Of a stretch of 64,000 nucleotides of DNA, positions 2,158 through 41,409 are shown piece by piece. Each line of letters opens with the position of its first letter. Position 1 is the first letter of the stretch. Under the pieces are notes generated by a model. It did not search any database, was not told the DNA's origin, and worked only from the letters and a program-made list of their open reading frames with translations. The DNA comes from Myxococcales bacterium (GTDB lineage Bacteria > UBA10199 > 2-02-FULL-44-16 > JAAZCA01), in NCBI GenBank assembly GCA_012513515.1, contig JAAZCA010000014.1:1268-65267 (forward strand). Direction: 5' to 3'. A program made the position numbers and the translations under genes.

Positions 2158-3522
2158 ATGGCAGAACTATCAAATAGAATCTTCGGCACGGATGGAATCA
2201 GGGGAAAGGCCAATTTTTATCCGATAGACTCCGAAACGGCGCTCGCCTTGGGGCGGGCCGTGGCATATCTCTTTAAAAACGGTACAAATCGTCATCGAAT
2301 AGTCATCGGCAAGGATACCCGCTTATCGGGCTACATGATCGAGACTGCGCTTGCCTCCGGGATATGTTCGATGGGGGCGGATGTCATGCTAGTCGGACCT
2401 CTGCCGACCCCGGGGGTGGCATTCATATCCAGGAGCATGAGGGCGGATGCGGGAATAGTGATATCCGCTTCGCATAATCCATTCGACGATAACGGAATTA
2501 AGTTCTTCGACAGGGATGGGTTTAAGCTCAGCGATTCCATGGAGCTCGATATCGAGGAGTTGGTGAAAAGCGGGATTCCCCGCGAAAAATGGCCCAGCGG
2601 AAACCTGATAGGAAAGGCGCAGCGAATAGATGACGCTGGTGGCAGGTATATACAGTTCCTAAAGGACGTACTTTCTTACTCCATCTCATTGGATGGTTTT
2701 CGCATCGTGGTGGACTGCGGCAATGGCGCAGGCTATCGCGTCGCTCCCAGCGTATTTCAGGAGCTGGGAGCCGAAGTCATAGAGCTCGGGACTTCACCAG
2801 ATGGCACCAACATCAATTGCGCTTGCGGTTCCATGCATCCGGAACGGATGTGCAACCTCGTTCGAAAGATGGGAGCCGATGCCGGAATCGCTCTGGATGG
2901 AGATGCTGACAGGGTTATCATGTGCGACGAGCATGGGAACATCGTCGATGGCGATGTCATCATGGCTCTTGCTGCAATAGACCTGAAGAAGCAGGGCAAA
3001 CTGGCGAAAAACACCTTGGTCGCCACCATAATGAGCAATATGGCTCTGGATGGTGCGATGCGCGCTGAGGGTATAAATCTAATCAGGACGCGCGTCGGCG
3101 ACAGACATGTAATATCCACGATGCGCGACAATGGCCTGAACCTGGGCGGCGAACAATCGGGGCATCTCATCTTTCTTGATCACAATACAACCGGAGACGG
3201 AATCGTCGGAGGCCTGAAGGTTCTTGCATCGATGGTTCGCTCCGGCAAGCCGCTTTCCGAGCTGGCGAGTGTTTTTGAGCCATACCCGCAGGTCAAAGTG
3301 GATGTGAACGTTTTGAAGAAGGTCGATCTTTCAGCTATTCCTCAGCTGCAAAAGGCCCTCGATAGTTACAGGGTGGAGCTCGGGAATTCCGGACGGCTGC
3401 TGCTGCGTTTTTCAGGAACTGAGAATATCGCCAGGGTTCTTGTGGAAGGACCCAATCGCGAGCGCATAAGGTGCATGGCAAGCGAGCTTGCGGGGCTGCT
3501 GACTGATCATCTCGCTAACTGA
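2158..3522 (+). CDS. glmM: phosphoglucosamine mutase
   Basis: Carries the GTDGIRG motif, the active-site SASHNPFDDNGIKF motif and the GEQSGH motif. The start was moved to the internal ATG at 2158 (MAELSN...) from the ORF-track start at 2083. Confidence 0.9.
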   Translation: MAELSNRIFGTDGIRGKANFYPIDSETALALGRAVAYLFKNGTNRHRIVIGKDTRLSGYMIETALASGICSMGADVMLVGPLPTPGVAFISRSMRADAGIVISASHNPFDDNGIKFFDRDGFKLSDSMELDIEELVKSGIPREKWPSGNLIGKAQRIDDAGGRYIQFLKDVLSYSISLDGFRIVVDCGNGAGYRVAPSVFQELGAEVIELGTSPDGTNINCACGSMHPERMCNLVRKMGADAGIALDGDADRVIMCDEHGNIVDGDVIMALAAIDLKKQGKLAKNTLVATIMSNMALDGAMRAEGINLIRTRVGDRHVISTMRDNGLNLGGEQSGHLIFLDHNTTGDGIVGGLKVLASMVRSGKPLSELASVFEPYPQVKVDVNVLKKVDLSAIPQLQKALDSYRVELGNSGRLLLRFSGTENIARVLVEGPNRERIRCMASELAGLLTDHLAN

Positions 3523-6319: not shown

Positions 6320-6411
6320 TAGAACCATTCGGGGATGACAATCATAGTGTCATTTCCGCGGTCTTAAGCCGCCGCTAACGCGGGGCAAACGGGAATCCCG
6401 TGGAATAGAAA
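6288..6411. repeat. composite intergenic repeat (modules GTCATTCCCGCGG / GGATCCC / CGGGGATGAC / AAGCCGCCGCTAACGCGGGG)
   Basis: It shares modules with at least 13 other loci in the window. It overlaps the 3' end of nnr. Confidence 0.8.
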
Positions 6412-6417
6412 TACAAG

Positions 6418-9574: not shown

Positions 9575-9585
9575 CCTAAAAAACA

Positions 9586-9650
9586 GGTTGAGGCTGAGGT
9601 TAAGGTTAAGAAAAATCATTTTCGCTCAACCTTAACCTAAACCTTAACCT
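9586..9650. repeat. hairpin built from tandem hexamers (GGTTAA)n / (TTAACC)n downstream of lysC
   Basis: GGTTGAGGCTGAGGTTAAGGTTAAG ... CTCAACCTTAACCTAAACCTTAACC forms the hairpin and may act as a terminator. Confidence 0.7.
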
Positions 9651-9661
9651 TTCGAATTTTT

Positions 9662-9790
9662 CGGTCGATGGTCAAAAACCGTGCGATAATACGATAGTGC
9701 AATAGTGCGATAAAAGCATGTCATCCCCGAGTGATGAGAAGGTTGTCATCCCCGAGTGGTGTAGTCGGGGATCCAGCAATAAGCGTGACT
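9662..9790. repeat. composite intergenic repeat (GGTCGATGGTCAA, GTCATCCCCGAGTG x2, CGGGGATCC, GCGTGACTCG modules)
   Basis: It belongs to the same family. Confidence 0.75.
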
Positions 9791-9822
9791 CGATATAAAA
9801 ATAAAGATATATTAACTTGACT

Positions 9823-9850
9823 ATGCAGGTTGATATATATTAACCTGCAT
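9823..9850. promoter_or_regulatory. putative operator palindrome ATGCAGGTT-GATATATAT-TAACCTGCAT upstream of the HTH/Doc pair
   Basis: It has 9/10 matching arms around an AT-rich core resembling a -10 element, and it sits directly upstream of the Shine-Dalgarno and ATG of the HTH gene. Confidence 0.55.
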
Positions 9851-9862
9851 AAAGAGGTTAAT

Positions 9863-10117
9863 ATGACCATCAAAAACTTCGTGTCGACGACGGAAGCCGC
9901 TAAAATCCTCGGAATAAGCACGGTAGCTGTCTTTAAAAAAATCAAGAATGGTCAGCTTCCAGCGCAGAGGGTCGGTAGAAATTATCTGATCGACATAAAA
10001 AACCTCGGTCTTAAAGATTCCAAGCCCAATAAAAAAACAAAAAAGCTGATCAGCGAAGCGGTGAAACGCGCGGTTTCTGAATATGGAGAAGCGTTGAAAA
10101 AACTGGGGGAAGAGTAG
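9863..10117 (+). CDS. excisionase/MerR-type helix-turn-helix DNA-binding protein, putative antitoxin
   Basis: A Xis-family HTH (AAKILGISTVAVFKKIKNGQLPAQRVGRNYLI) is preceded by an AGAGG Shine-Dalgarno, with an operator-like palindrome at 9823..9850. Its stop overlaps the start of the downstream Doc gene. Confidence 0.75.
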   Translation: MTIKNFVSTTEAAKILGISTVAVFKKIKNGQLPAQRVGRNYLIDIKNLGLKDSKPNKKTKKLISEAVKRAVSEYGEALKKLGEE

Positions 10118-10536
10118 TGCATATACTTTCTCTTCAGGAAGTTCGCGATATAGCATTCGAGCTCGCCAGAGAGAGTATGGCATGGGACGAACCTATTCCG
10201 GATTTTGACACCCGATTTCCTAACGTCCTGGAAAGCTGTCTATCGGCACCTTTTCAAACCTTTGACAAAAAAAATCTTTACAAAGGGTTGCTCGAAAAGA
10301 GCGCAATACTTTTCTATCTCATGATAAAGAATCATCCCTTTGCAAATGGCAACAAACGCATAGCGGTTACAGCTCTGCTTGTTTTCTTGGCTCTAAATGG
10401 GAAATGGTTGGAGGTAAGCAATCAGGAACTGTATAATTTTGCGGTTTGGGTGGCAAGCAGCCCGCCGCAACTCATGAACGAAACCGCTGATGCTATAGAG
10501 GGTTTTCTGACAAAAAATATCGTCTGTTACAGTTGA
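10117..10536 (+). CDS. doc: Doc/Fic-family toxin (death-on-curing type)
   Basis: It carries the exact Doc motif HPFANGNKR (HxFx[DN]GNKR). It uses a GTG start overlapping the upstream stop (TAGTG). Confidence 0.85.
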   Translation: MHILSLQEVRDIAFELARESMAWDEPIPDFDTRFPNVLESCLSAPFQTFDKKNLYKGLLEKSAILFYLMIKNHPFANGNKRIAVTALLVFLALNGKWLEVSNQELYNFAVWVASSPPQLMNETADAIEGFLTKNIVCYS

Positions 10537-10544
10537 AGGACTGG

Positions 10545-10745
10545 CAAATTGACCATGGACCATAGTGCGATAAAAGCCTGTCATCCCCGAGTGATTTTAT
10601 CGGGGATCCCGTAACGACCGTGACTGGTGGAAAAACAGAGGCTAGAGGTGAGATGTTAGAAACTAGAAAAAAACGGGCTCGTAAAAATCTCGTTTCTCAC
10701 TTCTAGATTCTAGCTTCTTGATGTCGGTCGATGGTCAATTGTCGG
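10545..10745. repeat. composite intergenic repeat plus CTAGA-type tandem-repeat hairpin (10630..10720)
   Basis: It carries the modules TTGACCATGGACCA, GTCATCCCCGAGTG, CGGGGATCCCG, CGACCGTGACTGGTG and GGTCGATGGTCAATTG. A hairpin GGCTAGAGGTGAGA...TCTCACTTCTAGATTCTAGC lies inside it. Confidence 0.75.
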
Positions 10746-10981
10746 GTTTAGGATGCATATCCCTGAAAAGAGCTGTTGGCATATTCGTTCAGATATTGTT
10801 AGAATGGGCGCCATCATTATTTAAGATTCGGGGTCCCTTTTATGCGTCAGAAAACGGATGCGCGCCTTATCATAACGAGAATGCCTGTTTCGATTTTTTC
10901 GCGTAATCACTTGAAATTATTCATTATTAGCTAAATCGGCTTTGGCATATAGGTTGCAACGTTATACGCCTGGAGGTTCTT

Positions 10982-13900
10982 ATGAAGAAAATAACCATAC
11001 TAATTCTTTCCGTGATCGCGATCGCCGCGGCCTATCCGCTTTTCGCCGCACAGGATTTTGGGTTTTCCGATCCGATACCGGTCGTCGGGGATAACCCAAA
11101 TGATCCAGGCGGGACGAGTGCTGTGAGGATGTATTTTTTCAATCATCCGGCATACACGGGGGACTCTAACTTCTCATCCTCATATGAGATCGATAAAAAA
11201 GTGAGCGATGTGATTGCAGTTCCGGGATCTGTTAGGATTGGAGAGCCTACTGCTATCTATTTACCCGCTTTTGGCTATGATAAGTCAAATATGCCGAAGT
11301 TAAAATCAACTTTAGGTTTAGGGCCTAGGAATTTGACTCTAAAGTTTGCTGAAGATAAGGAAATTACGCGTTATTTAGTGATGAGACCCTCCACCAAACC
11401 TAACCGACATGGAAGGTCAGTAGTGCTTGCAGATATCAGAAAAACGAAGTCAGGCGAATACCAATCACTTTCACTCGGAAATGACCGCCAATATATCGGC
11501 TATGCAGGCAACTATATTGCCCCATACTTGAGCGCTTCAGGGAAGAGCGATCATCCGGCATTATTTAAAAGTGCCAGCTCTGCTTACTTCAAATGGTGTT
11601 CCAGATCCAATAACATGGGTATCTACTTCGAATGTGCCGAAGAGGATACAATAGAAGAGATAGATGATATATTAGCGTACGACCTGGTTCCGCCTGTTGA
11701 TGCCTCTTTGATGATAACCCCCGTTTTTGATCCATTGCAGATACATGTGGGCGGTACAACTGCTGAACGTGGGTACTTGCTGAAAAACGGCCAAAGCACC
11801 AAGGGTTTTTATGCACTGAACGCAGCTACTACGGGTGCAGAACAACGAAAAGGCGAATTTAGAAAAGGCGAATTTAACTTTGCCTTAATTTCTCCTCTAA
11901 GTTTCTTTTACAAAGGCAACTACGACAAATATCGTTTTTTGGGGTACTCAAGTCTTCAGGACTACGTGATAGACATGACAGCGTTTCCTGAGAACAACTC
12001 ATCACTAGGGGGACTTAATCCAGAAGATTGGTTCGACTTACTCTATAAAAAGGTTGACGAACCTAAGGACTTTAGCTCAATTTTTATGTTGTATTCTTTA
12101 GGTTTAATAAATCTTCCCTATGCCACAGCTAACACTGTTTCGTCCGAGACACGTACCGCAGAATCACTACAGACGATCAGCGATATAATAGCGCCTGCCT
12201 ACATCACCAACCCATGGTTTCCGGTGGCGGCCAACCCTGTGGCAGTTGTCAGGGATTCTAGCCAGGATGTAGCTACCCTTTATTACAACACACTCTTTAG
12301 TTGGAATGATTTTTTGCTTACCCCTTATGGGCGTCCGACAATTTTCAAGGACATGGATGTTCACAGAATGAAGGAACTCGTCGGTTTTAAAAAAACAGAC
12401 GGATCCTTTACTTCTCTGGAAGACTGGTCTGGATATGAGTTCTTTTATCCGAGCAAGGTGGTAGTGCCGGTGGTGATATGGGGAGTCGGTGATGTAGATA
12501 TTGCGCAGTATGAGACATCCAATCCATCTTCGATAATTACGCCGAAAACGGTAGCTCTCGTGGATTATGGCGCCTCCAGCCACCCTGGAATTTTCAATAT
12601 GGCACATTTGCAGGACAGATCAAGAATTCCTAAAGACTATCTTCTTCTTCCCTCATCCATCGCTAACAATCGTGGCTTTGCCGGCATGATATACGTCATC
12701 GATAAAAATGACACGGAAAGCCAGCTTCATATGAAGAGTTGGAAATGGACCGAAGAACTAGGAAATGCTGACGATGTCAGAAAACGATTCGCCCTAAGGC
12801 CAAGAGAAGAAATATATACGGAAATTCCGTTCAGGGTTCCTTCCAAGGCTATTATGATTCCTCCCTATGATGGAGATCCAAACGTGGTCCCTTATCAACT
12901 TGCCACGGGAAACCTTGATGGAGATTCCTGTCAGGATATCGTGGTAAGTTATCGAAGCGCCGAGATGGTAACAGATATCCCAACTAAAAATTACACTGAC
13001 TTTCACGTATCCTATCCAAACCTGTTCAGCATCATATTCAGGAGCCCGCTCAAAGATGGTAGCTGCCCATTTTCCACTAGTGATAAATATTGGGATCCTG
13101 ATGGCATTACTGTTGTTCACAAAACTTTGCCGATTTTGGGTGGGAATACGGCCGGCAATGCCGCTGTTTCAGCGGTTTCAATAGGCAATTTCGTGGGAGA
13201 ACTTGGAAATAAAAAAAGAAACGATATAGCCGTCGGAAACCTAAATCTCGAGAAGGACGCCGATGGCAATTTTGCCGGCTTTGTCTACGTCTTTGCGAAT
13301 TCGGAAGATGACATTGATCGTACAACCGGAAAGCCGATCTTTAGTTCGCCAAACACAGGATATGACCCAACTACGGGCATTGGCGCCATCAGAATTAAGG
13401 CCGGTTTTAAATCTCATCCCGATAGCACAGATAAGTGGGGCGTGGGTTATTTGACGACTGACAGCGTTAGTGTTGAAGAATACGACAACATAGGTGCCAT
13501 AAGCGGACTTCCGCTGATCCTCCCATCCCTGGCATGTCCAGTAAGCGGCAGCGATACAACCAGGGCAGTTAGCGTCCATGAAGGAATGCTCGCCACCCTA
13601 TATGCGAGAATGAGTGAAAGCATAGGATGTGATGAGATAATATCAGCTAACGAAAATAATTTAAACCAAAGCTCATGCATGGACTCCACTCATAAAATGG
13701 AATACCCTTTTCAAAAATTCGGCATGCCATTGCCTCAGCGCTGTGCGCCCAGAGAAGGGGTATGTGGAGCTGGTCTTGTTGAAGAAGCAACTAATTACAA
13801 ACTTCCGTTGTGGAGTGATATAGATTGCCCAACCCAATGCTCAAAATGGGAAAATCTATGCTTACTTAGCCAGATGGACCAAAATCTTACGTCATCTTCA

Positions 13901-16285
13901 GAACCTTATATGGGGCTTGGCGGAAATTTTTGTATGGTAAGAGATGACATTCATGGCCAACCTCTTAATCCAATGGCTTACCTTTGTATGCAGCAGCTAA
14001 ATGCTGTGCGCGAGCCGGTGAATAAGCAAGACAGCTTTGCGTATTTAACCGACTTAGGCGGCATTGCCGATGGATCGCAGACGGAAAATGCATTCTATTA
14101 TTTTGCGCCACTATTTCCGCCCGATGAAGAAACAAGTCTTAGTGTATATTCTACACTTTTTACTGGAAATAATCGCTATGCGCCAATTACGTTTATGGAC
14201 AATTTGGTCAATGCGAGCAATGCTTGGACGTTCTATCTGCCATCTACGGCAAGTGCCCAGTATAATCCCACTTACCCAGAGCGTGTGCAACCGTTCCCAA
14301 GTGGCGCAGCCGGATGTTCCCTCTTACCTCCTTCTCAGCAGAACGTAGTCAGCCAGGATAGAGAGATGTCCGTGCCATTTGCATATGATTTTCTCGATCC
14401 AAAGATGCCGCTGGAGGATAACCCCCTGTTCAATAAAATAAGCCCTCCGAGCGGCTCTCAGGCCGAGACAACCTACTATCCCTCGACTATAGATTATAAA
14501 AAAATCCCCCTTATAAAGGGGCGTGAGATGCCGGGACCTAGGGAGATGACCGTGATACTGGGGGCCGCTGCGCCATGCGGCAATGGATCTGTAGATGTGT
14601 ATCTTGGCGAGCAATGCGATCCTATTGCTGACGACCCAAGTTCCTCATGTAAGAGCTTGGGATTTGGAGATTCGAGCTCATGCAATGCAAATTGCATGTG
14701 TAGCGGATGTGGTGATGGTACGGTGGATTCGAATGCGGGAGAGGAATGCGATCTGGGTTCAGAGAATTTTTCAGATACCGATCGTGACGGATGTCGAACC
14801 GGATGCAAGTTGCACTCATGCGGTGATGAAGTGGTTGATTCCGACGAGCAGTGCGAAGGAAATCAGACGCAGGAAGGGTCACACTGCGATCCTGACAAAT
14901 GCCAGTGGGTTTCAAATACCTGCGGAGATGGGATCTTTTCACAGGACGCGACTTACAGCGAAGAATGTGATTACTCAGCCGGTGAAGAGGGCGCCTGCAA
15001 AACTGCTGGTTTTGAATGTAGCCAAAGTTGCATATGTGAACCTATTTGCGGCGACAATATCGTAGCAGGCGCTGAGGTTTGCGATGGTACCGCCGGCTGT
15101 CAGTCAGGATACACCTGTAACGAAGAATGCAGCGTATGCGAAAAGGTGCCGGTCTGCGGCGATGGAACTGTCGACCCCGGGGAAACCTGCGGAGAGCTGG
15201 GGCTTTCATGTGCTGAAGGTTTTGAATGCATCGCCCAAGGGCAACCTAATGCCTGCACATGTACGCCGGTGCCGGACTCGTTTTCATCCGACTGCGAGGT
15301 GAAGTGCGTAAGCTTCGCAGACGAAGCGGAGAAGCTCTATTACGATTCACTTAACGAGACCTATTTCCGCGCTCCATCGGGAAGAAAGGACGATTTCTTC
15401 TGCCCGAACAACTCCGTCATCCAGATGTCCTGCCTTGTCGCAGATGCTGCATTCAACGGATCCGTCGGCCCTTGGATGATGGTCCAGAGCAAGGGAATGG
15501 TGCTGCATGACATGGCCAAGATCACATCATCGGATTTTCCGTTCGATGTCGTAGCCCCGCAGAGCCCGATTCGAATCGCTCCTCTCGCATCCTCCGCGAG
15601 CTCCGGCGGAAAAGCCGCTGCGGTCGTCCTCCCGAACCTGGCCTCGATTCGAGGGAATCTGGAGTTTTCAACCAGCGGAGTCTCGCCGATGGCGGCGACA
15701 TCTGTGATGGAAAGCACGGCCGGCATAATGACGATCAACAACATGATAGAGCATCGTGCAGTCGCTCTAATGCCTTCGAGTTCAAAATCGCAGTCGAGGG
15801 ATGCTGGCAAGGCTGCTGCGGCCCCTGCCGTACATTACACGAGGCTTCGGGCCTATCCGGAACCGACCCACACTACGATAGAGAGCTGGCCGAAGGATCT
15901 CGATCCTGAGAAGCTCTATGTCGAGAATCGGCTGAAACCGGATTATGTCAGGAGCATAATTGAAACTCGTAAAAAGGAAGGGGCAAAGGGAACCCGCGAT
16001 ATCGCCCTGGGAATTTCTGACGATGTCGGCATATACGAGATGTCGATATTGCAGGAGACCTATGGTGAAAAGAGCAGCGGCACTACGGCGGTCAACTATT
16101 CATTCTATGCTGGGCCCGTATCTTCGATCTCCGAAGGGGGCGCAGGATGCGGAAAGTGCTCGATATCCGAGAATTCTGGCTTCAATGCCAGGGCCGCCAC
16201 ACCTATATTGCTGGCAGTGCTGTTGTCGGCACTCGCCCTTGGCGCAGTAAGGGTGAGGGTTAGCGTGAGGTCGAAAAGGAAGTAG
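10982..16285 (+). CDS. giant secreted/cell-surface protein (1767 aa) with FG-GAP-like repeats, Myxococcus-type CGDG cysteine-rich repeats and a C-terminal sorting-like anchor
   Basis: It has a GGAGG Shine-Dalgarno and an N-terminal signal peptide (MKKITILILSVIAIAAAYPLFAAQ). Five CGDG...EECD repeats fall at residues ~1230-1400, FG-GAP-like segments (GNFVGELGNKKRNDIAVGNLN) are present, and the protein ends GAGCGKCS...PILLAVLLSALALGAVRVRVSVRSKRK. A terminator hairpin follows at 16309..16357. Confidence 0.85.
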   Translation: MKKITILILSVIAIAAAYPLFAAQDFGFSDPIPVVGDNPNDPGGTSAVRMYFFNHPAYTGDSNFSSSYEIDKKVSDVIAVPGSVRIGEPTAIYLPAFGYDKSNMPKLKSTLGLGPRNLTLKFAEDKEITRYLVMRPSTKPNRHGRSVVLADIRKTKSGEYQSLSLGNDRQYIGYAGNYIAPYLSASGKSDHPALFKSASSAYFKWCSRSNNMGIYFECAEEDTIEEIDDILAYDLVPPVDASLMITPVFDPLQIHVGGTTAERGYLLKNGQSTKGFYALNAATTGAEQRKGEFRKGEFNFALISPLSFFYKGNYDKYRFLGYSSLQDYVIDMTAFPENNSSLGGLNPEDWFDLLYKKVDEPKDFSSIFMLYSLGLINLPYATANTVSSETRTAESLQTISDIIAPAYITNPWFPVAANPVAVVRDSSQDVATLYYNTLFSWNDFLLTPYGRPTIFKDMDVHRMKELVGFKKTDGSFTSLEDWSGYEFFYPSKVVVPVVIWGVGDVDIAQYETSNPSSIITPKTVALVDYGASSHPGIFNMAHLQDRSRIPKDYLLLPSSIANNRGFAGMIYVIDKNDTESQLHMKSWKWTEELGNADDVRKRFALRPREEIYTEIPFRVPSKAIMIPPYDGDPNVVPYQLATGNLDGDSCQDIVVSYRSAEMVTDIPTKNYTDFHVSYPNLFSIIFRSPLKDGSCPFSTSDKYWDPDGITVVHKTLPILGGNTAGNAAVSAVSIGNFVGELGNKKRNDIAVGNLNLEKDADGNFAGFVYVFANSEDDIDRTTGKPIFSSPNTGYDPTTGIGAIRIKAGFKSHPDSTDKWGVGYLTTDSVSVEEYDNIGAISGLPLILPSLACPVSGSDTTRAVSVHEGMLATLYARMSESIGCDEIISANENNLNQSSCMDSTHKMEYPFQKFGMPLPQRCAPREGVCGAGLVEEATNYKLPLWSDIDCPTQCSKWENLCLLSQMDQNLTSSSEPYMGLGGNFCMVRDDIHGQPLNPMAYLCMQQLNAVREPVNKQDSFAYLTDLGGIADGSQTENAFYYFAPLFPPDEETSLSVYSTLFTGNNRYAPITFMDNLVNASNAWTFYLPSTASAQYNPTYPERVQPFPSGAAGCSLLPPSQQNVVSQDREMSVPFAYDFLDPKMPLEDNPLFNKISPPSGSQAETTYYPSTIDYKKIPLIKGREMPGPREMTVILGAAAPCGNGSVDVYLGEQCDPIADDPSSSCKSLGFGDSSSCNANCMCSGCGDGTVDSNAGEECDLGSENFSDTDRDGCRTGCKLHSCGDEVVDSDEQCEGNQTQEGSHCDPDKCQWVSNTCGDGIFSQDATYSEECDYSAGEEGACKTAGFECSQSCICEPICGDNIVAGAEVCDGTAGCQSGYTCNEECSVCEKVPVCGDGTVDPGETCGELGLSCAEGFECIAQGQPNACTCTPVPDSFSSDCEVKCVSFADEAEKLYYDSLNETYFRAPSGRKDDFFCPNNSVIQMSCLVADAAFNGSVGPWMMVQSKGMVLHDMAKITSSDFPFDVVAPQSPIRIAPLASSASSGGKAAAVVLPNLASIRGNLEFSTSGVSPMAATSVMESTAGIMTINNMIEHRAVALMPSSSKSQSRDAGKAAAAPAVHYTRLRAYPEPTHTTIESWPKDLDPEKLYVENRLKPDYVRSIIETRKKEGAKGTRDIALGISDDVGIYEMSILQETYGEKSSGTTAVNYSFYAGPVSSISEGGAGCGKCSISENSGFNARAATPILLAVLLSALALGAVRVRVSVRSKRK

Positions 16286-16308
16286 GGCGTTAAAATAGAA
16301 GTATCTTC

Positions 16309-16357
16309 TTCGGGGGAGATGTAATCGCTTCGTGCGGCCGTGTCCCCCGAGTTTTTT
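16309..16357 (+). terminator. rho-independent terminator after the giant gene
   Basis: CTTCGGGGGAG ... TGTCCCCCGAG forms a stem followed by TTTTTT. Confidence 0.7.
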
Positions 16358-16372
16358 CAGGCATTCTTAAAA

Positions 16373-16560
16373 TCGACCATGGACAATTGGCCTCTGTTTT
16401 TTCCAGTCACGGCTGTTGCTGGAGGGGGTCGAATCCTGATCGCTGATCCCTGATCTTTGATCAGCATTTTGTAAGATTAGCTTATATTCGAAAACATCCT
16501 TATTAAGATTAAGATCAGGATCAAGATTAAGATGAAGATTAAGATTAAGAGGAAGATTAA
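16373..16560. repeat. composite repeat: CGACCATGGACAATTGGCC module + ~105-bp MITE-like element (copy A) + (AAGATT)n hexamer tract
   Basis: The 105-bp core is nearly identical to 17343..17447, with 2 mismatches. Confidence 0.8.
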
Positions 16561-16911
16561 TCAAAATATCGGATTAAATTTTTTCATATTGATGATCATA
16601 GCATAAGCCCTGCGAAGCAGCGTTTTTAGTTCTTCCTGATACTTGGCGGATATATATCCATAAGCCGATAGGATATCGATGATCGAGGCGACCTCGGCTA
16701 TTGAGCCTGGGGAGATATCGAAAAACCGATTTCTGTCTTTTTGGGACTTTCTGCCATTTCCTTCCGCTAAGTTAAGCAGGGTGCTGGAAAGGGCTCGTTT
16801 AAGCTGATCCTCCAGATAGTAATTTCCCCTTGGAAGAGATCCTATTAGCTCTGGCATTCTTTTTGCGACCGAAAGCAAAAGTCCGTAGCAGTTAAGCCGC
16901 TGATGATTCAT
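16561..16911 (-). CDS. four-helix-bundle protein (TIGR02436-like, '23S rRNA intervening-sequence protein' family)
   Basis: It is 116 aa and starts MNHQRLNCYGLLLSVAKRMPELIG...NLAEGNGR. A GGAGG Shine-Dalgarno precedes it, and a paralog is encoded divergently. Confidence 0.8.
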   Translation of the reverse strand: MNHQRLNCYGLLLSVAKRMPELIGSLPRGNYYLEDQLKRALSSTLLNLAEGNGRKSQKDRNRFFDISPGSIAEVASIIDILSAYGYISAKYQEELKTLLRRAYAMIINMKKFNPIF

Positions 16912-16926
16912 TTAAAACCTCCTCCT

Positions 16927-16984
16927 TGTGATTTTAATTTCAAAACCTCCCGACCGGCTGAGAGGTTTTGAAATTAAAATCACA
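16927..16984. promoter_or_regulatory. perfect 23-bp inverted repeat (TGTGATTTTAATTTCAAAACCTC - 12 nt - GAGGTTTTGAAATTAAAATCACA) between the divergent four-helix-bundle genes
   Basis: Both arms were read directly from the sequence. The element sits between the two Shine-Dalgarno sequences. Confidence 0.8.
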
Positions 16985-16996
16985 GATGGAGGGGTT

Positions 16997-17332
16997 ATGT
17001 TCGGACATCAGCGGCTTTACTGCTACAATCTTTGCCTTGGGGTGGCAAAAAGGATGCCAGAGCTAATCGGATCATGGCCATCGGGGTCAGGATATCTCGT
17101 GGATCAGCTTAAACGGGCCCTTTCGAGCGTTATACTGAATATCGCTGAAGGAAATGGTAGAAAGTCGATAAAGGAGAGAAGACGGTTTTTCGATATCGCG
17201 ATAGGTTCTGCTGCCGAAGTATCCTCTATCTTCGATGTCGCCAGAGCTTATGGATATATCACCGAGCCAGTCTATGAGGAGCTTCAGTCGGAGCTGCTTC
17301 AGGTGGTGAGGATGCTATACAAGCTGAAGTAA
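16997..17332 (+). CDS. four-helix-bundle protein (TIGR02436-like), paralog of 16561..16911
   Basis: MFGHQRLYCYNLCLGVAKRMPELIG...NIAEGNGR is roughly 60% identical to its neighbour by eye. A GGAGGGG Shine-Dalgarno precedes it. The ORF-track start at 16928 lies inside the palindrome, so the start was reset to the ATG at 16997. Confidence 0.8.
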   Translation: MFGHQRLYCYNLCLGVAKRMPELIGSWPSGSGYLVDQLKRALSSVILNIAEGNGRKSIKERRRFFDIAIGSAAEVSSIFDVARAYGYITEPVYEELQSELLQVVRMLYKLK

Positions 17333-17337
17333 TCCTC

Positions 17338-17552
17338 GAATCCTGATCCCTAATCCCTGATCTTTGATCAGCATTTTGTAAGATTAGCTTATATTCGAAA
17401 ACATCCTTATTAAGATTAAGATCAGGATCAAGATTAAGATTCGGGGATGACACCATGAATGTCATTCCCGCATGCTGTAAGCCGCCGCTAACGCGGGGCA
17501 AACGGGAATCCCTTGCCAATCGTTCAGCAGTTACGAGTCACCAGTCACAGCT
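17338..17552. repeat. composite repeat: ~105-bp MITE-like element (copy B) + CGGGGATGAC / GTCATTCCCGC / AAGCCGCCGCTAACGCGGGG / CACCAGTCAC modules
   Basis: It is a direct repeat of 16426..16530. Confidence 0.8.
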
Positions 17553-17643
17553 TTTTACCCAATAATCTCTTGTAATCATTGACTTCTTTCTTTTTCTCAA
17601 TAAGATCACCGCAAATTCAAGAAGTTAAAGCGGGGGAGGAAAA

Positions 17644-18966
17644 ATGGCGAAAGTACGAGTCGTGTTGGTTCTTGCAGTGGCGGTTTTTGCGGCCGTCCTC
17701 TTTATCTCAAAAGCGGTCGAAGCGGGACACAGCCCGGATGTGGTGACCTTCAACCCGGTCACGGATGGCGGAAAGTACAACGTCATCCACCAGTCGAAAA
17801 CCTTGCCACAGTGGGGATTCAACGTCGGAATGACCTTCGATTATGCCTACGAGCCGTATGAAAAAGCCACCGCCGCCGGAACGAGGATAATCGGGATAGT
17901 TGACGACCTCATGATGACCAACGTCCACGGGGCTATCGGCTGGACCGACTGGTGGTCGATGGGCGCAAATCTTCCTGTCGCGATTTGGCAAACCTGGTTT
18001 GATCCAAACCTTCCCATTGCCACCGTGCAAAAGGAGAACAAATACGGAAAACTCGGCGATGCGCGCCTCGAGATGAAATTTCGCCTTCTCGACATCGAAA
18101 GACACCACGTCGGCTTGGCGCTGGTTCCCTATATGTATTTTCCAACCGGACATTGGCAGACCTATCTCGGCAACGATATGTGGAGCCCCGGCGGAACTCT
18201 GGTTTTCGATGCCGATATAAAGAACCGCGTCTTTCTCTCTCTGAACGTCGGTTACAGGATGTATAAATATGTCCGTTACGATACGACAAACCCGAATGCG
18301 TTTCTTGATGACACCCTCAGCATGGGGGGAGGGATAAATGTCAGAATCAATGACACCTGGGCAATCACCGGTGAGGCATGGAGCGAGTCAGTCATAAAAT
18401 CCCTCTTCAAGAACCAGCTTCAGAATCCCTCGGAGTTTTTGGTCGGGACCAAAATCACTCCGCAAGGTGCGGCGAAGGGGTTGGGAATCACAGTCGGCGG
18501 AGGAAGGGCGATCACTACCGGCATAGGCGATCCTGATTTTCGCGTCCTGGTCGGCGTAAACTATCGCTACGATCGTGAGCCGCCGCCGCCGCCGCCAGTT
18601 GAAGTTGAAGCAGCGGTAGAAGAAAAGATCATCATCACCCAGAAGATTCACTTCGAGTTCAACAAGGCCGTCATAAGGCCAGTTTCTTATCCAATTCTCG
18701 ACGATGTCGTGATGTTGCTGCAGCAGAATCCGCAGCTGGGGCTTATCCGTGTTGAAGGCCACACCGACTGGATCGGGAACGATGCCTACAACCAGCGGCT
18801 GTCGGAAAAGAGGGCGAACTCCGTCCGCGAGTATCTGATCAGCAAGGGGATAGAGCCGTACAGGCTTCAGGCTGTCGGATATGGCGAGTCCAGGCCGATC
18901 GCCGACAACAATACCACAAAGGGGCGCGCCCGCAATAGGCGAACGGAATTTACGGTCGTGCAGTAA
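17644..18966 (+). CDS. OmpA-family outer-membrane protein (N-terminal beta-barrel, poly-Pro linker, C-terminal OmpA peptidoglycan-binding domain)
   Basis: It has a signal peptide, a PPPPPPVEVEAAVEE linker and a C-terminal OmpA_C domain (NQRLSEKRANSVREYL ... NRRTEFTVV). Confidence 0.85.
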   Translation: MAKVRVVLVLAVAVFAAVLFISKAVEAGHSPDVVTFNPVTDGGKYNVIHQSKTLPQWGFNVGMTFDYAYEPYEKATAAGTRIIGIVDDLMMTNVHGAIGWTDWWSMGANLPVAIWQTWFDPNLPIATVQKENKYGKLGDARLEMKFRLLDIERHHVGLALVPYMYFPTGHWQTYLGNDMWSPGGTLVFDADIKNRVFLSLNVGYRMYKYVRYDTTNPNAFLDDTLSMGGGINVRINDTWAITGEAWSESVIKSLFKNQLQNPSEFLVGTKITPQGAAKGLGITVGGGRAITTGIGDPDFRVLVGVNYRYDREPPPPPPVEVEAAVEEKIIITQKIHFEFNKAVIRPVSYPILDDVVMLLQQNPQLGLIRVEGHTDWIGNDAYNQRLSEKRANSVREYLISKGIEPYRLQAVGYGESRPIADNNTTKGRARNRRTEFTVVQ

Positions 18967-18987
18967 ATTTCAAGAAGCAAACTAACT

Positions 18988-19136
18988 TCGACCATGGACA
19001 ATTGACCTCTGTTTTTCCCAGTCACGCTTGTTACGGGATCCCCGATAGAACCATTCGGGGATGACGACCTTTTCGACACTCGGGGATGACAATCACGCCG
19101 TCATTCCCGCGGTTTTAAGCCGCCGCTAACGCGGGG
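18988..19136. repeat. composite intergenic repeat (CGACCATGGACAATTGACCTCTGTTTTTCCCAGTCACG + GGGATCCCCGAT + CGGGGATGAC x2 + GTCATTCCCGCGG + AAGCCGCCGCTAACGCGGGG)
   Basis: It belongs to the same family. Confidence 0.8.
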
Positions 19137-19192
19137 TTCCGACTGTTTCTTAACCTTGATTTTCACTGAAAAATCGATTCTACCTGGCCAGG

Positions 19193-21334: not shown

Positions 21335-21335
21335 C

Positions 21336-21450
21336 AGCCGTGACTCGTAACTGGTGAACGGTTGGAACCCCGCGGTAGCGGCGGCTTAATGCCGCGGGAA
21401 TGACATTCATAGTGTCATCCCCGAATGACGAGAAGGTCGTCATCCCCAGT
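21336..21450. repeat. composite intergenic repeat (inverted orientation of the CCGCGG/GTCATTCCC/GTCATCCCC modules)
   Basis: AGCCGTGACTCGTAACTGGTGAACGG ... CCCCGCGGTAGCGGCGGCTTAATGCCGCGGGAATGAC ... GTCATCCCC x2. Confidence 0.78.
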
Positions 21451-21572
21451 GTAAACAGAGATCTTGTTGTAACATGCTGAAATTAAACGATAAATCTGCA
21501 TTATAAGCTTGTTATATGGTATGATATGTTAGTAATTGATTTTTTTACAGTATTATAATATAGTAGTGATCT

Positions 21573-23033
21573 ATGAGCGAACAAGTTCAAATCTATCTTA
21601 ATAACCAAATATCTAAAATACCTGCGTTTTTAGACGCTTATCTCCATGATCGCAGCGGTAAATTATATGCAAAACGCCATCTTTTTGACCGTGTAATGAG
21701 CCGTGTGAACAATTTTCTACAAAATCGTTCTGAGGTGAGATTTATTGGCATTTCAGGGCTTAGAGGGGTTGGCAAGACCACCTTGCTCGCTCAACTGTCT
21801 AAAGAAATTATCTCAAAATACCCAAAGGATTTTCTTTATTTGACGATGGATGAGGTGACAGGAGTCCTTCAGAGCGATTTGTTGGAAGTTCTAACGGAAT
21901 ATGAAAAAATTATAGGTTGTTCTTTCGAAGAAATTAAACGGCCTGTTTTTATTTTTATTGATGAAGTTCATTTTGATGAAAAATGGACGCTGGCATTGAA
22001 AACTATTTACGATAAATCTAAACATATATTTGTTATATGTACAGGCTCGTCCGCGCTTTCTTTGCGCGCGACTCCAGATCTTGCAAGAAGAATCTTATTT
22101 GAAAAACTTTATCCGATGAAATTTTCAGAATATATTTTTCTTAAAAATCACGACGATATTGTTTTAAATCAAAAAAAGTTAAATGGTAGTGTGTCAAACG
22201 ACTTGAGCGCAAAGATTGTTCAGGCTTTGTTGTACAGTCCAAGCGGAAAATCTTGTTATGAATCTTTTTTGAAGCTTGAAAAGGATATTAAAGAGTTTTG
22301 GTATGGGTTGAACGCTTTGGAAATGGAAAGATTCCTAAAATTTGGCAATCTGCCTTTTGCATTAAAAGAAACAGAGGAATTCGATTGTTTAAAATTGATT
22401 TTAGAAATTATCGACAGGATTGTTGAAAAGGATATTCCAGCACTAGGAAAGTTTAAAATTGAAACTTTGTCTCGAGCAAAAAATATTCTTTTAATGTTGG
22501 CTTCCGGTGACGAAACTAGTTTTACGAGTTTTGCCAAAAGTTTAAATAATATTTCAATAATCACTCTTCAAGATTTGTTTGATGCGTTTGAAAAAGCTGA
22601 GATTTTGTTTCGTGTTTATCCCTATGGTTCGGCTTTTAAAAAGGTGAGAAAGCCGTCCAAGTATCTCTTTATGTCTCCATCCCTTCGTTATGCATTGCTT
22701 AGTGTCGTAGAGGGGCGCAATGCTTATTTAACCCATAAAGGAAAATATTTGGAAGATGTTGTGTGTATGACATTAATTTCAAGCGCTGAGGATATTATTG
22801 TGAAATCCCTTTTTTACGATAGCTCAAAAGGTGGCGCTGATTTTATTATAAAAATTGGAGATAAAAAAATTGTATTAGAGGTCGGTTTTGGGGAAAAAGG
22901 TAATGATCAAATTTTATATACGATGAGAAGGACGAAGGCGAATTATGGGGTTTTAATATCAGAAACAGAATTAAATTTTGATAGTGAGAACAATATCGTA
23001 AAAATACCGCTGCAAACGTTTTTAAGCATATAA
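21573..23033 (+). CDS. AAA+ superfamily ATPase (COG1373-like, DUF4143 C-terminal domain)
   Basis: It has the Walker A GISGLRGVGKTTLL and the Walker B FIFIDEVH. The gene and its upstream region are markedly AT-rich compared with the flanking DNA. Confidence 0.8.
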   Translation: MSEQVQIYLNNQISKIPAFLDAYLHDRSGKLYAKRHLFDRVMSRVNNFLQNRSEVRFIGISGLRGVGKTTLLAQLSKEIISKYPKDFLYLTMDEVTGVLQSDLLEVLTEYEKIIGCSFEEIKRPVFIFIDEVHFDEKWTLALKTIYDKSKHIFVICTGSSALSLRATPDLARRILFEKLYPMKFSEYIFLKNHDDIVLNQKKLNGSVSNDLSAKIVQALLYSPSGKSCYESFLKLEKDIKEFWYGLNALEMERFLKFGNLPFALKETEEFDCLKLILEIIDRIVEKDIPALGKFKIETLSRAKNILLMLASGDETSFTSFAKSLNNISIITLQDLFDAFEKAEILFRVYPYGSAFKKVRKPSKYLFMSPSLRYALLSVVEGRNAYLTHKGKYLEDVVCMTLISSAEDIIVKSLFYDSSKGGADFIIKIGDKKIVLEVGFGEKGNDQILYTMRRTKANYGVLISETELNFDSENNIVKIPLQTFLSI

Positions 23034-23040
23034 TTTGAAC

Positions 23041-23165
23041 AGCCGTGACTGGTGAGACAAGAAGGTCGTCATCACCGAATGGTTCTATCGGGGATCCCGC
23101 AACGACCGTGACTTGTGACTAGTGACTCGTAACTGGTGAACGGTTGGAACGGGATCCCGCAACAA
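23041..23165. repeat. composite intergenic repeat (AGCCGTGACTGGTGA, GTCATCACCGA, CGGGGATCCCGCAACGACCGTGACT, GTAACTGGTGAACGGTTGGAAC, GGGATCCCGC)
   Basis: It belongs to the same family. Confidence 0.78.
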
Positions 23166-24480: not shown

Positions 24481-24494
24481 CAGCCTCTTCACCA

Positions 24495-24570
24495 CTCACC
24501 AGTCACGGCTGTTACGGGATCCCCGATAAAAGCACTCGGGGATGACACCATGAATGTCATTCCCGCATGC
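24495..24570. repeat. composite intergenic repeat between convergent genes (CACCAGTCACGG, GGGATCCCCGAT, CACTCGGGGATGAC, GTCATTCCCGC)
   Basis: It belongs to the same family. Confidence 0.78.
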
Positions 24571-24571
24571 T

Positions 24572-30560: not shown

Positions 30561-30734
30561 GTTTGGTGCTATATTTTTTTCCTCTCCATTTGTCAGCATC
30601 CCCCAATTTTGCGGGCCGTTAAGCCAGATAATGAAAAAATAGTCAATGAAAAGTTAGTGTTTCTACGGAATGGTCGAAACAGGATCTCTGTAATTACTTC
30701 AGGAATTTCTGAAAAGCTAGCTGCAACAATAACT

Positions 30735-30812
30735 TCGACCATGGACGATTGACCTCTGTTTTTCCCAGTCACGCTTGTTACGGGATCCCCGATTACACCA
30801 CTCGGGGATGAC
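30735..30812. repeat. composite intergenic repeat (CGACCATGGACGATTGACCTCTGTTTTTCCCAGTCACG + GGGATCCCCGAT + CACTCGGGGATGAC)
   Basis: It is near-identical to 18988..19060. Confidence 0.8.
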
Positions 30813-30860
30813 AAGCGCATAGTTTTTAGAGGTGCCCTGAATTTGCTGATTTCTCAGAGA

Positions 30861-38896: not shown

Positions 38897-39147
38897 AACT
38901 CCTCACTTTTAGCGTATCTCGGTAGCAAATTGGACGTACCATAACAAGTGAAATATATAGCTATTCATAGATATGAATTAACTTAATATTTCATATATCA
39001 TCTTGACTTTATATAAAATATTTTTAAAATATACTTAAATTAAGCATAATTAAGTATAAACTAAGTCTGCTTTTGCTTTGATATTTCAATGACTTATTGC
39101 CTGCTTGGCACCCTAAGGCCGCCAAAGCTGATCCTAAAGGGGGATAT

Positions 39148-39339
39148 ATGGATCCAGCTCTCAAGGCACTTTGTATTGAAGTTTTAGACGGCGATGTTGA
39201 CGGGGACGAATTTGCCACCCTGCTGATGGAGACCGGGGTCGATCTCGACGATTTTGAGTGGAATGTAGCAAGCAGGCTTCTCGAGCGCGGTGACGTCATG
39301 AATTTCCTTACCAGGCGTTATGGATATACCTTGCAGTGA
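39148..39339 (+). CDS. small acidic hypothetical protein (~63 aa)
   Basis: The ORF 39097..39339 contains an internal ATG at 39148 (MDPALKALCIEV...). No family was recognised. It is flanked by an AT-rich tract and a repeat element. Confidence 0.35.
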   Translation: MDPALKALCIEVLDGDVDGDEFATLLMETGVDLDDFEWNVASRLLERGDVMNFLTRRYGYTLQ

Positions 39340-39461
39340 CCCACCCTTACCTTTCTCAATGCACAAAAACAGTTTTGATCAACGGGATAAGTTCTAAGTT
39401 TTCAGTGAATTAACCTTCGAAAAATCAGCAAATTCAGGGCACCTCCAAAAGCCATGCGCTT

Positions 39462-39586
39462 GTCATCCCAGCAACAACCGTGACTGGTGAATCGTAACTG
39501 GTGAACGGCGGATCAAAGATCAGCGACAATGGACCATTGACCAGCTACGATCGGTGGTTTTTGTCGATGGTCAATTGTCCATTAGC
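39462..39586. repeat. composite intergenic repeat (GTCATCCCAGC, CCGTGACTGGTGA, GTAACTGGTGAACGG, CAATGGACCATTGACC / GGTCAATTGTCCATT inverted pair)
   Basis: It belongs to the same family. Confidence 0.72.
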
Positions 39587-41256: not shown

Positions 41257-41409
41257 CTACTTCCTGGTCTTTCTCCTCGGGGACGCCTTCTTCTTTGCTA
41301 CTTTTTTCTTCTTCACTACCTTTTTCTTCTTTGCCACTTTTTTCTTCTTCACTACCTTTTTCTTCTTCGCCACCTTCTTTTTCTTCGCTACTTTCTTCTT
41401 GCAAACCAT
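41257..41409 (-). CDS. histone H1-like Lys/Ala-repeat basic protein (~50 aa)
   Basis: MVCKKKVAKKKKVAKKKKVVKKKKVAKKKKVV... is built from 18-nt tandem DNA repeats. A strong GGAGGGGG Shine-Dalgarno precedes the ATG at 41409, and a terminator hairpin lies downstream at 41205..41230. Confidence 0.7.
   Translation of the reverse strand: MVCKKKVAKKKKVAKKKKVVKKKKVAKKKKVVKKKKVAKKKASPRRKTRK

Follow-up and report, generated by a model that had tools for sequence, protein, structure and literature searches.

The gene pair and its palindrome

In a 64-kb stretch of DNA from a Myxococcales bacterium (64,000 nucleotides of contig JAAZCA010000014.1, hereafter the window), two small genes, A and B, are transcribed away from each other on either side of a long palindrome, and each is followed by a copy of the same 105-nt repeat, which we call R (Table 1). 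As the original prediction had it, these genes are divergent TIGR02436-like paralogs of about 115 aa. The PF05635 profile matches A and B with E-values of 1e-18 and 2e-22 (67.5 and 79.7 bits, curated cut-off 33.8), the TIGR02436 profile with 1e-17 and 3e-22 (64 and 79 bits, curated cut-off 24), and the products of 116 and 111 aa share 62% identity across 110 aa; by these matches, A and B are PF05635/TIGR02436 paralogs. Proteins of this family have been known since the 1990s from intervening sequences (IVSs) in 23S rRNA and later as Avd in diversity-generating retroelements (DGRs). Outside DGRs, to our knowledge, neither their function nor the way in which their genes spread is known. Our comparisons with other genomes suggest that the locus holds a two-gene cassette of the IVS-protein/Avd family that is conserved, multi-copy and mirror-symmetric and bears signs of mobility. 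A literature search returned no description of paired or palindromic PF05635 cassettes; its coverage was incomplete, and an earlier description elsewhere is possible.

Table 1. Features at and around the paired genes, in positions of the window.
Feature	Position	Strand	Remarks
Terminator-like hairpin and T-run of the upstream 1767-aa gene	16308..16357	+	left edge of the inserted material; sequence reading
Mosaic intergenic modules left of R	16373..16428	+	include ...CAGTCACGGCTGTTGCTGGAGGGGG, the constant left neighbor of R
R copy A, 105-nt hairpin-forming dispersed repeat	16429..16533	+	CCTGATC-type arm, 35-nt spacer, ATTAAG-type arm
Hexamer-repeat extension, cassette end on the gene A side	16534..16560	-	G-poor CTTAATC-type repeats in gene orientation
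Gene A, type-2 four-helix-bundle protein, 116 aa	16561..16911	-	C-terminus ...YAMIINMKKFNPIF; dN/dS 0.07-0.12
Palindromic intergenic region, 85 nt	16912..16996	.	perfect arms and loop, with the two Shine-Dalgarno sites at the base of the stem
Gene B, type-1 four-helix-bundle protein, 111 aa	16997..17332	+	C-terminus ...VVRMLYKLK
R copy B	17336..17440	+	left arm is also the cassette end beside gene B
Mosaic modules right of R	17441..17549	+	CGGGGATGACA...GTCATTCCCGC, GCCGCCGCTAACGCGGGG...GGGAATCCC, GTTACGAGTCACCAGTCAC heptamers
Promoter-like site TTGACT-16-TAAGAT of the OmpA-family gene	17579..17606	+	right edge of the inserted material; sigma-70 scan

No further four-helix-bundle gene and no further R copy was found elsewhere in the window, nor did any rRNA reach the Rfam gathering threshold there. 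The palindrome reads open in frame with gene B from a GTG at 16928 (16928-17332), and some pipelines call a 134-aa product (P0001, P0122, P0123); the conserved form is the 111-aa protein that starts at ATG 16997 behind GGAGG. Exact protein look-up traced window proteins to metagenome-assembled genomes (MAGs) named 'Myxococcales bacterium' and 'bacterium ADurb.Bin270', from anaerobic-digester-type metagenomes; for the gene A protein, the look-up found no record.

The pair recurs as a twin cassette

Homologs of gene B were traced to their contigs, and a scan of one genome per species yielded 80 loci. Every locus of at least 44% identity with available upstream sequence proved to be a divergent pair with a spacer of 81-91 nt, and more distant relatives, from Verrucomicrobiota, Bacteroidota and Patescibacteria, were single genes. 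The 41 distinct loci on other contigs always comprised one type-1 and one type-2 gene, head to head. It had been proposed at the outset to examine the neighborhoods of the paralogs in other genomes, and there the divergent pair and its palindrome recur in unrelated contexts. Copies are numerous within single MAGs, with lower bounds of 13 for CAYWXY01, 16 for CAIPVD01 and 9 for JBGSNL01; the long-read assembly CAXXGI01 has 7. Many contigs start 25-86 nt upstream of one of the genes, a position which places the assembly breaks within the palindrome, and the palindrome is thus why assemblies of such genomes break at cassette loci.

In the 33 complete pairs, the partner was 46-73% identical and never the best match. 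In all 33, the best match was instead the corresponding gene of another pair, on the same side or, where the pair had been fetched inverted, on the opposite side. C-terminal signatures likewise split the two types (...LLQIVKMLYKLR or MLWxLMK versus ...YAMIxxLKK or LRLAYVQIRALP), and we therefore believe that an ancient heterotypic couple has been spreading as a unit. With ratios of nonsynonymous to synonymous substitution rates (dN/dS) of 0.02-0.14 for both genes in ten comparisons, some of them between copies within one genome, both genes are, at the codon level, under strong purifying selection. No neighboring gene family was recurrent among 43 pair loci, and genes for a reverse transcriptase, transposase or integrase were likewise not recurrent next to the pairs. 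Plasmid collections contained no DNA match.

The seventh pair of CAXXGI01 (L114:780-1080, on contig_3 of ~918 kb) belongs to an older subfamily and lies directly downstream of an apparent 5S rRNA 3' end and terminator, followed by the arms of a CATCGC/GAACGG periodic-repeat hairpin; a position beside an rRNA operon is of note given the history of the family in 23S IVSs.

The central palindrome

A perfect 23-bp palindrome with a 12-nt spacer had been reported between the genes, and this is what we find: the arms at 16927-16949 and 16962-16984 are 100% complementary over 23 nt around a 12-nt loop (16950-16961, CCGACCGGCTGA), where shuffled sequences lead one to expect 0 such matches. The symmetry spans the entire 85-nt intergenic region including both Shine-Dalgarno sites, and the folding energies of the two strands are -45 to -48 kcal/mol, with z-scores of -8.7 and -11.2. 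A near-perfect palindrome of 81-91 nt separates the genes in 41 distinct pairs. Alignment of the intergenic regions with MAFFT and RNAalifold brought only the inner 9 pairs into register, and double changes were seen at all 9 predicted pairs of this poorly registered alignment; a loop-anchored gapless count was used instead. By this count, the median stem is 23 bp long and 97.5% strictly Watson-Crick, and the loop is nearly always 12 nt (range 10-14). The first 22 stem positions are 95% Watson-Crick, compared with a mean of 45% and a maximum of 52% when partners are shuffled among loci, and nearly every position shows three or four of the pair types. G·T is not favored among the rare non-Watson-Crick cells (~5 of ~45). 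Conservation across loci is confined to the loop ends and to CCTCC/GGAGG near the apex. The arm sequences are entirely different among the pairs of one genome, and they are conserved among the window, L007, L009 and L010 although the proteins of these loci are only 77% identical.

The loop ends are conserved and asymmetric (TCR-N6-7-YGG or the reverse complement), and the loop points either way with respect to the type-1 gene in an essentially random manner, 12 to 10, as counted over 23 consistently labeled pairs and like-for-like close relatives; propagation of the type-1/type-2 labels gave both genes one label in 10 pairs of a distant clade. Close relatives carry opposite loops, as in the window versus L007 and L010 (TCAACCGGTCGG), L023 versus L024 (within one MAG), L030 versus L046, and L068/L070 versus L071/L072 (protein identities of 95-99%). 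Between the copies in CAXXGI01, DNA identity is 90-97% for the genes and only 47-93% for the spacer, which carries mirrored substitutions and indels. In one of them (L071:2853-2994) the palindrome has expanded to 142 nt with ccgtt-type periodic repeats like those found after the gene (fold of -114 kcal/mol), and in L080 and L081 (~2785-3050) symmetric deletions of ~265 nt around the center have removed the palindrome together with both 5' gene ends. The nucleotide identity of partner genes exceeds that of non-partner cross-comparisons by 0.17 to 0.21 in the first 22 codons, by 0.06 to 0.11 in mid-gene and by ~0 at the 3' end.

Because G·T pairs are not in excess, and because the loop has asymmetric ends and is nevertheless randomly oriented and flipped between close relatives, we place the symmetry at the level of DNA. 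The pattern suggests that the arms are kept identical by templated arm-to-arm conversion, which would enter the genes a short way and sometimes invert the loop. Such conversion could proceed by template switching or by gene conversion across the hairpin, and would homogenize the first ~20 codons of both genes. The conserved length and loop ends suggest that the palindrome also has a function. Similar behavior is seen in flip-flop palindromes, such as the terminal hairpins of parvoviruses and adeno-associated virus, poxvirus telomeres and quasipalindromes that are hotspots of template switching, which share the perfect stem, the asymmetric loop occurring both ways and the templated arms; unlike the viral examples at replicon ends, the cassette palindrome lies inside a chromosome.

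An alternative is that the palindrome acts mainly as RNA, in the form of a hairpin in the 5' leader, in which each Shine-Dalgarno site would be occluded and which RNase III would cleave like the stems of IVSs; the 3' hairpins and G-poor tracts (see below) would then be processing, terminator or Rho-loading sites, and a promoter-less cassette could be expressed by read-through whichever way it is oriented. The very stable hairpins on both strands, with both Shine-Dalgarno sites included, are in line with this proposal, as is the excision of same-family IVS elements by RNase III at 28-bp stems (PMC4990558). The cassette contains no consensus promoter, 51 of 76 flanking open reading frames (ORFs; crude calls) are aimed at it, and the G-poor sequence after the stop codons has periodic YC-rich tracts, with a small terminator-like stem in R. 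However, the stem is strictly Watson-Crick and G·T is no commoner than other mismatches, unlike in RNA helices under selection, and complementarity of the Shine-Dalgarno sites is automatic for divergent genes. Mirrored indels, loop flipping and a conversion gradient into coding sequence are moreover phenomena of DNA, and we give this alternative a low probability. A search of Rfam 15 returned no match at the gathering score, only generic long-hairpin (miRNA-precursor) look-alikes far below it.

The palindrome could also be a shared operator or bidirectional promoter, perhaps bound by the four-helix proteins as autoregulators, in which case the cassette would be a stable host module. A dyad-symmetric site exactly between divergent start codons, conservation of the arms in four loci despite the divergence of their proteins, and the basic nature of these proteins would fit. 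Against this, arms that are wholly different among the pairs of one genome would require each pair to have its own specificity, conservation is limited to the loop ends and CCTCC/GGAGG, the palindrome has no -35/-10 consensus, and multi-copy distribution, empty sites and target duplications favor mobility. We thus regard a primary regulatory role as distinctly improbable, although operator function could coexist with arm-to-arm conversion in a mobile cassette as an added role.

A further observation concerns exchange between cassettes. A comparison of 16561-17372 in the window with L007 and L009, which have a different left flank, showed 100% DNA identity through gene B and the first ~40 nt of R. 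In L007, gene A stands at dS 0.59 from that of the window and the loop is inverted, with the mosaic breakpoint at the palindrome/start codon. At the sequence level, this indicates a recent exchange of a half-cassette.

Cassette ends and target duplications

Downstream of the genes, the first 60 nt past the stop codons (in gene orientation) contain 14.9% G, versus 24.6% at 200-320 nt (68 flanks; Wilcoxon p 3e-11). These tracts are periodic, with identities of 0.37, 0.32 and 0.36 at lags 6, 7 and 12 versus about 0.25-0.29, and 'ATC' occurs 4.3 times per 60 nt versus 1.5. Because the genes diverge and the end tracts are inverted, the whole cassette is a mirror image with low-complexity terminal inverted repeats. 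A GA-rich inverse arm often follows the end tract and produces a long imperfect 3' hairpin, a form which R also has. The overall geometry is that of an inverted repeat with inverted low-complexity ends, in which each ORF is bracketed by two local hairpins and not by a single long-range stem.

Sharp borders were found in six related CAXXGI01 copies, which share 0.9-1.07 kb with ends of the type 5'-TG(Y)(W)GTRSTCAC...GTGACTACTGCA-3', that is, TG...CA. Two of these copies are flanked by perfect, copy-specific 7-bp target duplications, TATAAAG|TGTTGTGCTCAC...GTGACTACTGCA|TATAAAG in L071 and TGTGATG|TGTATCAC...ACTGCA|TGTGATG in L080; in L070 and L072 the ends have diverged. In this one lineage, the imperfect terminal inverted repeats with TG...CA and the 7-bp duplications resemble those of miniature inverted-repeat transposable elements (MITEs) and foldback elements, which are likewise multi-copy, have terminal inverted repeats of short tandem repeats and lack an internal transposase. 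The cassette differs from them in carrying two intact genes under purifying selection rather than being a non-coding deletion derivative, and three cassette copies have direct repeats of 50-105 bp instead.

Insertion between conserved core genes

The cassette of the window was thought to lie in an accessory island. We find instead that its neighbors, which encode a 1767-aa secreted protein, an OmpA-family protein, RecG, LipA, a cyclase and squalene-hopene cyclase, are syntenic core genes in related genomes; in the window, a gene for an AAA_14/DUF4143 protein also stands among them. The order giant protein-OmpA-RecG-LipA-cyclase-squalene-hopene cyclase is kept in L109, L110 and L112, where the OmpA proteins are 70-76% identical. 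The gap between the giant gene and the OmpA gene measures 221-374 nt in these relatives, where it consists of a terminator and a conserved TTGACTTnC...ATAAAAT promoter and has neither four-helix genes nor R, versus 1358 nt in the window. Because of this difference, we place the insertion of the cassette and the repeat modules between the terminator and the ompA-like promoter. By this synteny, the window cassette is a small insertion among core genes, and the corresponding site is empty in three relatives.

R, a resident repeat probably duplicated around the cassette

The two R copies are 98.1% identical, with 2 mismatches, and lie 907 nt apart, both on the + strand, which agrees with the original prediction in length, mismatches and orientation; its coordinates (16426..16530 and 17343..17447) needed shifts of 3 nt for copy A and 7 nt for copy B. 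Copy A comes to within 27 nt of the stop codon of gene A, and copy B begins 4 nt past that of gene B. R folds into an imperfect hairpin, and its proposed internal palindrome CTGATCTTTGATCAG is present in both copies (16450-16464 and 17357-17371). The proposed terminal pairing CGAATC...GATTCG is complete only in copy B, because copy A runs on into further ATTAAG hexamers. Copy B also contains a small terminator-like stem with a T-run (17357-17381).

When metagenome contigs were scanned with the R spacer, six stretches proved to have one solo copy each, 88-98% identical and without an adjacent four-helix gene. R is thus dispersed beyond the locus, as had been suspected, and does not occur only at these two positions. 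Around the solo copies lie arrays of the short modules that also occupy 11 intergenic regions of the window, and a GGAGGGGG-ending module precedes each solo copy. Within the window, 16373-16411 recurs at 18988-19026 and 30735-30773, and identical or near-identical copies of the right-hand modules lie at 24536-24571, 6365-6399, 21368-21426, 23114-23147 and 39480-39507. The left neighbor ...GTCACGGYYGTTGCKGGAGGGGG is common to all solo copies and to copy A of the window, and the right neighbor TCGGGGATGACAnCATGAATGTCATTCCCGC to the solo copy L103 and copy B. Since copy A keeps the left neighbor and copy B the right one, the two look like the products of a single duplication of a resident R around an insert of ~0.8 kb. 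From its sequence, the window looks like an array into which the hexamer extension, gene A, palindrome and gene B entered while a resident solo R was duplicated. This duplication might have arisen by staggered cleavage at the base of an extruded hairpin target, by double-strand-break repair or Campbell-type recombination through R, or by duplication followed by deletion. The arms of R resemble both cassette ends, being short-period repeats of the kind that end cassettes in all genomes, and downstream of gene B in L010 and L105 a part of the R spacer (GCATTTTGTAAGATTAG) is found again; R is thus related in sequence to the cassette ends.

A different account, implied by the initial description of the 105-bp element as MITE-like, is that R is an independent non-autonomous MITE which inserted once past each of two ordinary chromosomal paralogs, the pair itself being immobile. 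Its dispersal as solo copies in six other metagenome stretches and its hairpin form, with imperfect terminal inverted repeats and variation in heptamer and hexamer copy number, would be expected of such an element. Yet no target-site duplication or other sign of independent insertion of R was seen at either window copy, and the neighboring modules fit one duplication, not two insertions. The copies share one orientation and 98% identity, the gene pair occurs without R in 40 other contexts, and the orthologous site is without both genes and R. We therefore consider this account very unlikely: the moving unit would be the gene pair with its palindrome, not R. Two other readings of the flanking repeats were rejected. 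Copy A is not the mirror image of copy B with the loop flipped, as the arms are direct copies. The arrangement repeat-cassette-repeat, with direct ~100-nt imperfect-hairpin copies around a small accessory cassette, recalls an integron cassette with attC sites. In contrast to integrons, R has no RYYYAAC/GTTRRRY core sites, there is no integrase or array, the neighbors are core genes, only two R copies occur in 64 kb, and most cassettes of the family are without flanking direct repeats.

The modules around R are of some interest in themselves. They occupy 6320-6417, 9575-9863, 10537-10981, 16286-16560, 17333-17643, 18967-19192, 21335-21572, 23034-23143, 24481-24571, 30607-30860 and 38897-39570, and are short, hairpin-forming, of varying order and orientation and 84-100% identical (for example, CGGGGATGAC/GTCATCCCCG, GTCATTCCCGC...GCGGGAATCC, GTGACTNGTAACTGGTGAA heptamers and GACCATGGACAATTG). 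Related modules flank the CAXXGI01 cassette L071, and the overall pattern is a mosaic like that of bacterial interspersed mosaic elements (BIMEs). As in the repetitive extragenic palindromic (REP) sequences, BIMEs and REP doublets forming hairpins (REPINs) of bacteria such as E. coli, short hairpin modules stand in varied order in many intergenic regions; unlike there, the module sequences are unrelated to REP, no transposase of the REP-associated tyrosine transposase (RAYT) type was seen, and one of the modules has been duplicated on either side of a gene cassette. Slippage evidently occurs in the periodic arms: solo R copies vary in the number of heptamers and hexamers, and at 17343-17349, in the left arm of copy B, a one-heptamer (7-nt) indel separates the window from the strains represented by L002-L006 and L008.

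Predicted four-helix-bundle proteins of two types

The AlphaFold2 model of gene B's product has four long helices (mean predicted local distance difference test score of 96.3), with template modeling (TM) scores of 0.86-0.91 to Xcc0516 (2GSC), ~0.8 to BT_0352 (2RLD) and 0.76-0.80 to Avd, either alone (4DWL) or in the DGR ribonucleoprotein (8UB7). By sequence profile, the only structure matched was 2GSC (E 1e-16). The protein is accordingly predicted to have a four-helix-bundle fold like that of Xcc0516 and BT_0352. Both proteins are basic in every pair (isoelectric points of 9.2-10.8). The PF05635 family is very widely distributed: an exhaustive search gave 6116 cluster representatives (50% identity) at E-values up to 1e-3, and among the better matches were many proteins of ~250 aa with two unlike four-helix-bundle domains. 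In five such fusions (P0254, P0258, P0264, P0267 and P0278), the motif of the N-terminal domain is a degenerate NIAxGNS, and that of the C-terminal domain is the canonical LNIAEGNGR. The fused homologs support the notion that two unlike bundles work together, and, with the obligate pairing of the genes, lead us to infer that types 1 and 2 probably form a hetero-oligomer.

Avd is known as a pentameric barrel that binds the reverse transcriptase and RNA. Like the window proteins, it is a basic four-helix bundle of ~110 aa with a similar fold in prediction; it differs in being encoded by a single gene near a reverse transcriptase and template/variable repeats, whereas the window genes are paired paralogs without these nearby. 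We also weighed the possibility that the pair is a remnant or accessory of a DGR or another defense system, Avd-like and working with a reverse transcriptase. Apart from the resemblance of the modeled fold to Avd, it is relevant here that PF05635 is the Pfam family most commonly associated with DGRs (PMC10053308). On the other hand, sequence identity to Avd is only 12-13%, the 43 pair loci have no reverse transcriptase or recurrent neighbor, PADLOC and PHROGs models gave no match, and IMG/VR viral contigs contained no relatives. With no reverse transcriptase Pfam family among the gene calls of the neighborhoods checked, we reject this highly improbable reading.

A proposed mobile twin cassette

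Taken together, we believe with moderate confidence that the locus represents a copy of a mobile (selfish) and conserved 'twin' cassette, whose palindrome is maintained by conversion at the DNA level and for which R is a duplicated resident module. Such a cassette would measure ~0.8-1.1 kb and comprise two anciently diverged PF05635 (23S-IVS protein/Avd-like) genes around a palindrome of 81-91 bp, with ~50-65 nt of G-poor 6-7-nt periodic repeats after each gene that would act as low-complexity terminal inverted repeats. By analogy with Avd and Xcc0516, the two basic four-helix-bundle proteins would act together, probably as a hetero-oligomeric barrel binding nucleic acid, plausibly the element's own hairpin. 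Movement may depend on machinery supplied in trans, which could be a DDE-type transposase in the long-read lineage, and in the window lineage recombination or repair through dispersed hairpin repeats such as R. A bolder version, which we consider unlikely, is that the twin cassette represents a self-sufficient class of mobile element, whose hetero-oligomer recognizes the flip-flop hairpin and the periodic ends and recruits host replication, repair or reverse transcription for copying into hairpin-forming intergenic targets. If true, this would also account for the single-gene IVS elements in the helices of 23S rRNA.

Several observations weigh against mobility or limit what can be concluded from the palindrome. 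No transposase, recombinase or reverse transcriptase is encoded in or beside the cassette. Exact 7-bp duplications were found in two of four testable CAXXGI01 copies and in one lineage only (L081 has a 6-mer and L068 none), and none was recognizable for L023/L024 or for the window copy. Three cassettes instead have long direct repeats on their flanks (window, 105 nt; L029, at least 54 nt; L045, 50 nt), which fit no standard transposition model; the repeat of L045 is a terminator-like hairpin, and that of L029 runs into one. In most genomes, the copies are old (65-80% nucleotide identity, for example in CAYWXY), and proliferation may therefore have been slow, or duplication may account for part of it. 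Every sequence used is from a MAG or a metagenome, and palindromes are prone to assembly artifacts; this is countered by the presence of the same structure in short-read, long-read and independent assemblies. A sigma-70 consensus scan of 16200-17700 found no site in or beside the palindrome, only one internal to gene B and the ompA-like promoter, and conversion at the DNA level may leave room for an additional RNA or operator role of the hairpin.

Among the closest known parallels to the proposed twin cassette is the 23S IVS. IVS elements with an S23p ORF, as in Leptospira and Coxiella burnetii, are small ORF-bearing elements of the same protein family with long-stem inverted-repeat borders, scattered in distribution and long suspected to be selfish or mobile (PMC4990558). 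Family genes have further been reported within rRNA genes (PMC11270868), in cas loci (PMC3936711), in DGRs as Avd-like genes (PMC10053308) and among strain-specific genes (PMC8700078; PMC11637426). The two arrangements also differ: an IVS is inserted into a 23S rRNA gene, at helix 25 or 45, and has one gene, whereas the window cassette stands between protein-coding genes and has two heterotypic genes, with the center of symmetry between the genes and not around one ORF. We know of no report of low-complexity periodic ends, loop flip-flop or target duplications for IVSs. The twin cassette may show how the PF05635 family spreads, and turns the vague idea of a 'selfish ORF' into testable hypotheses about a hetero-oligomer of the two proteins, its binding to the hairpin and the machinery that moves the cassette. 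It also offers a natural system for the study of concerted evolution and loop inversion in short chromosomal palindromes.

Other features of the window

Two further gene insertions or gene pairs in the window are associated with repeats. An AAA_14/DUF4143 ATPase gene (21573-23033) lies between RecG and LipA, is missing from that junction in L109, L110 and L112, and has mosaic modules as its flanks, apparently as another insertion specific to this lineage. A small HTH_17 and Fic/Doc gene pair with an HPFANGNKR motif (9864-10536; Pfam calls on the same genes in L003) is placed between two short-tandem-repeat hairpins, with AGGTTA/TAACCT hexamers on the left (9585-9651) and TTCTAGA-type repeats on the right (10640-10722), a layout that follows the same design of a cassette between low-complexity hairpins as the four-helix pair. 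The 1767-aa secreted protein upstream of the cassette (10982-16285) has Cys-rich repeats in its C-terminal third, a hydrophobic C-terminal anchor and only a faint DUF4215 match, and its orthologs range from 1572 to 1893 aa among relatives. Lastly, a tandem repeat with a period of 18/36/54 nt (TTCTTCTTCGCTACCTTT, ~6 copies, Tandem Repeats Finder score up to 170) lies at 41287-41400, just upstream of the apparent start of a minus-strand gene.

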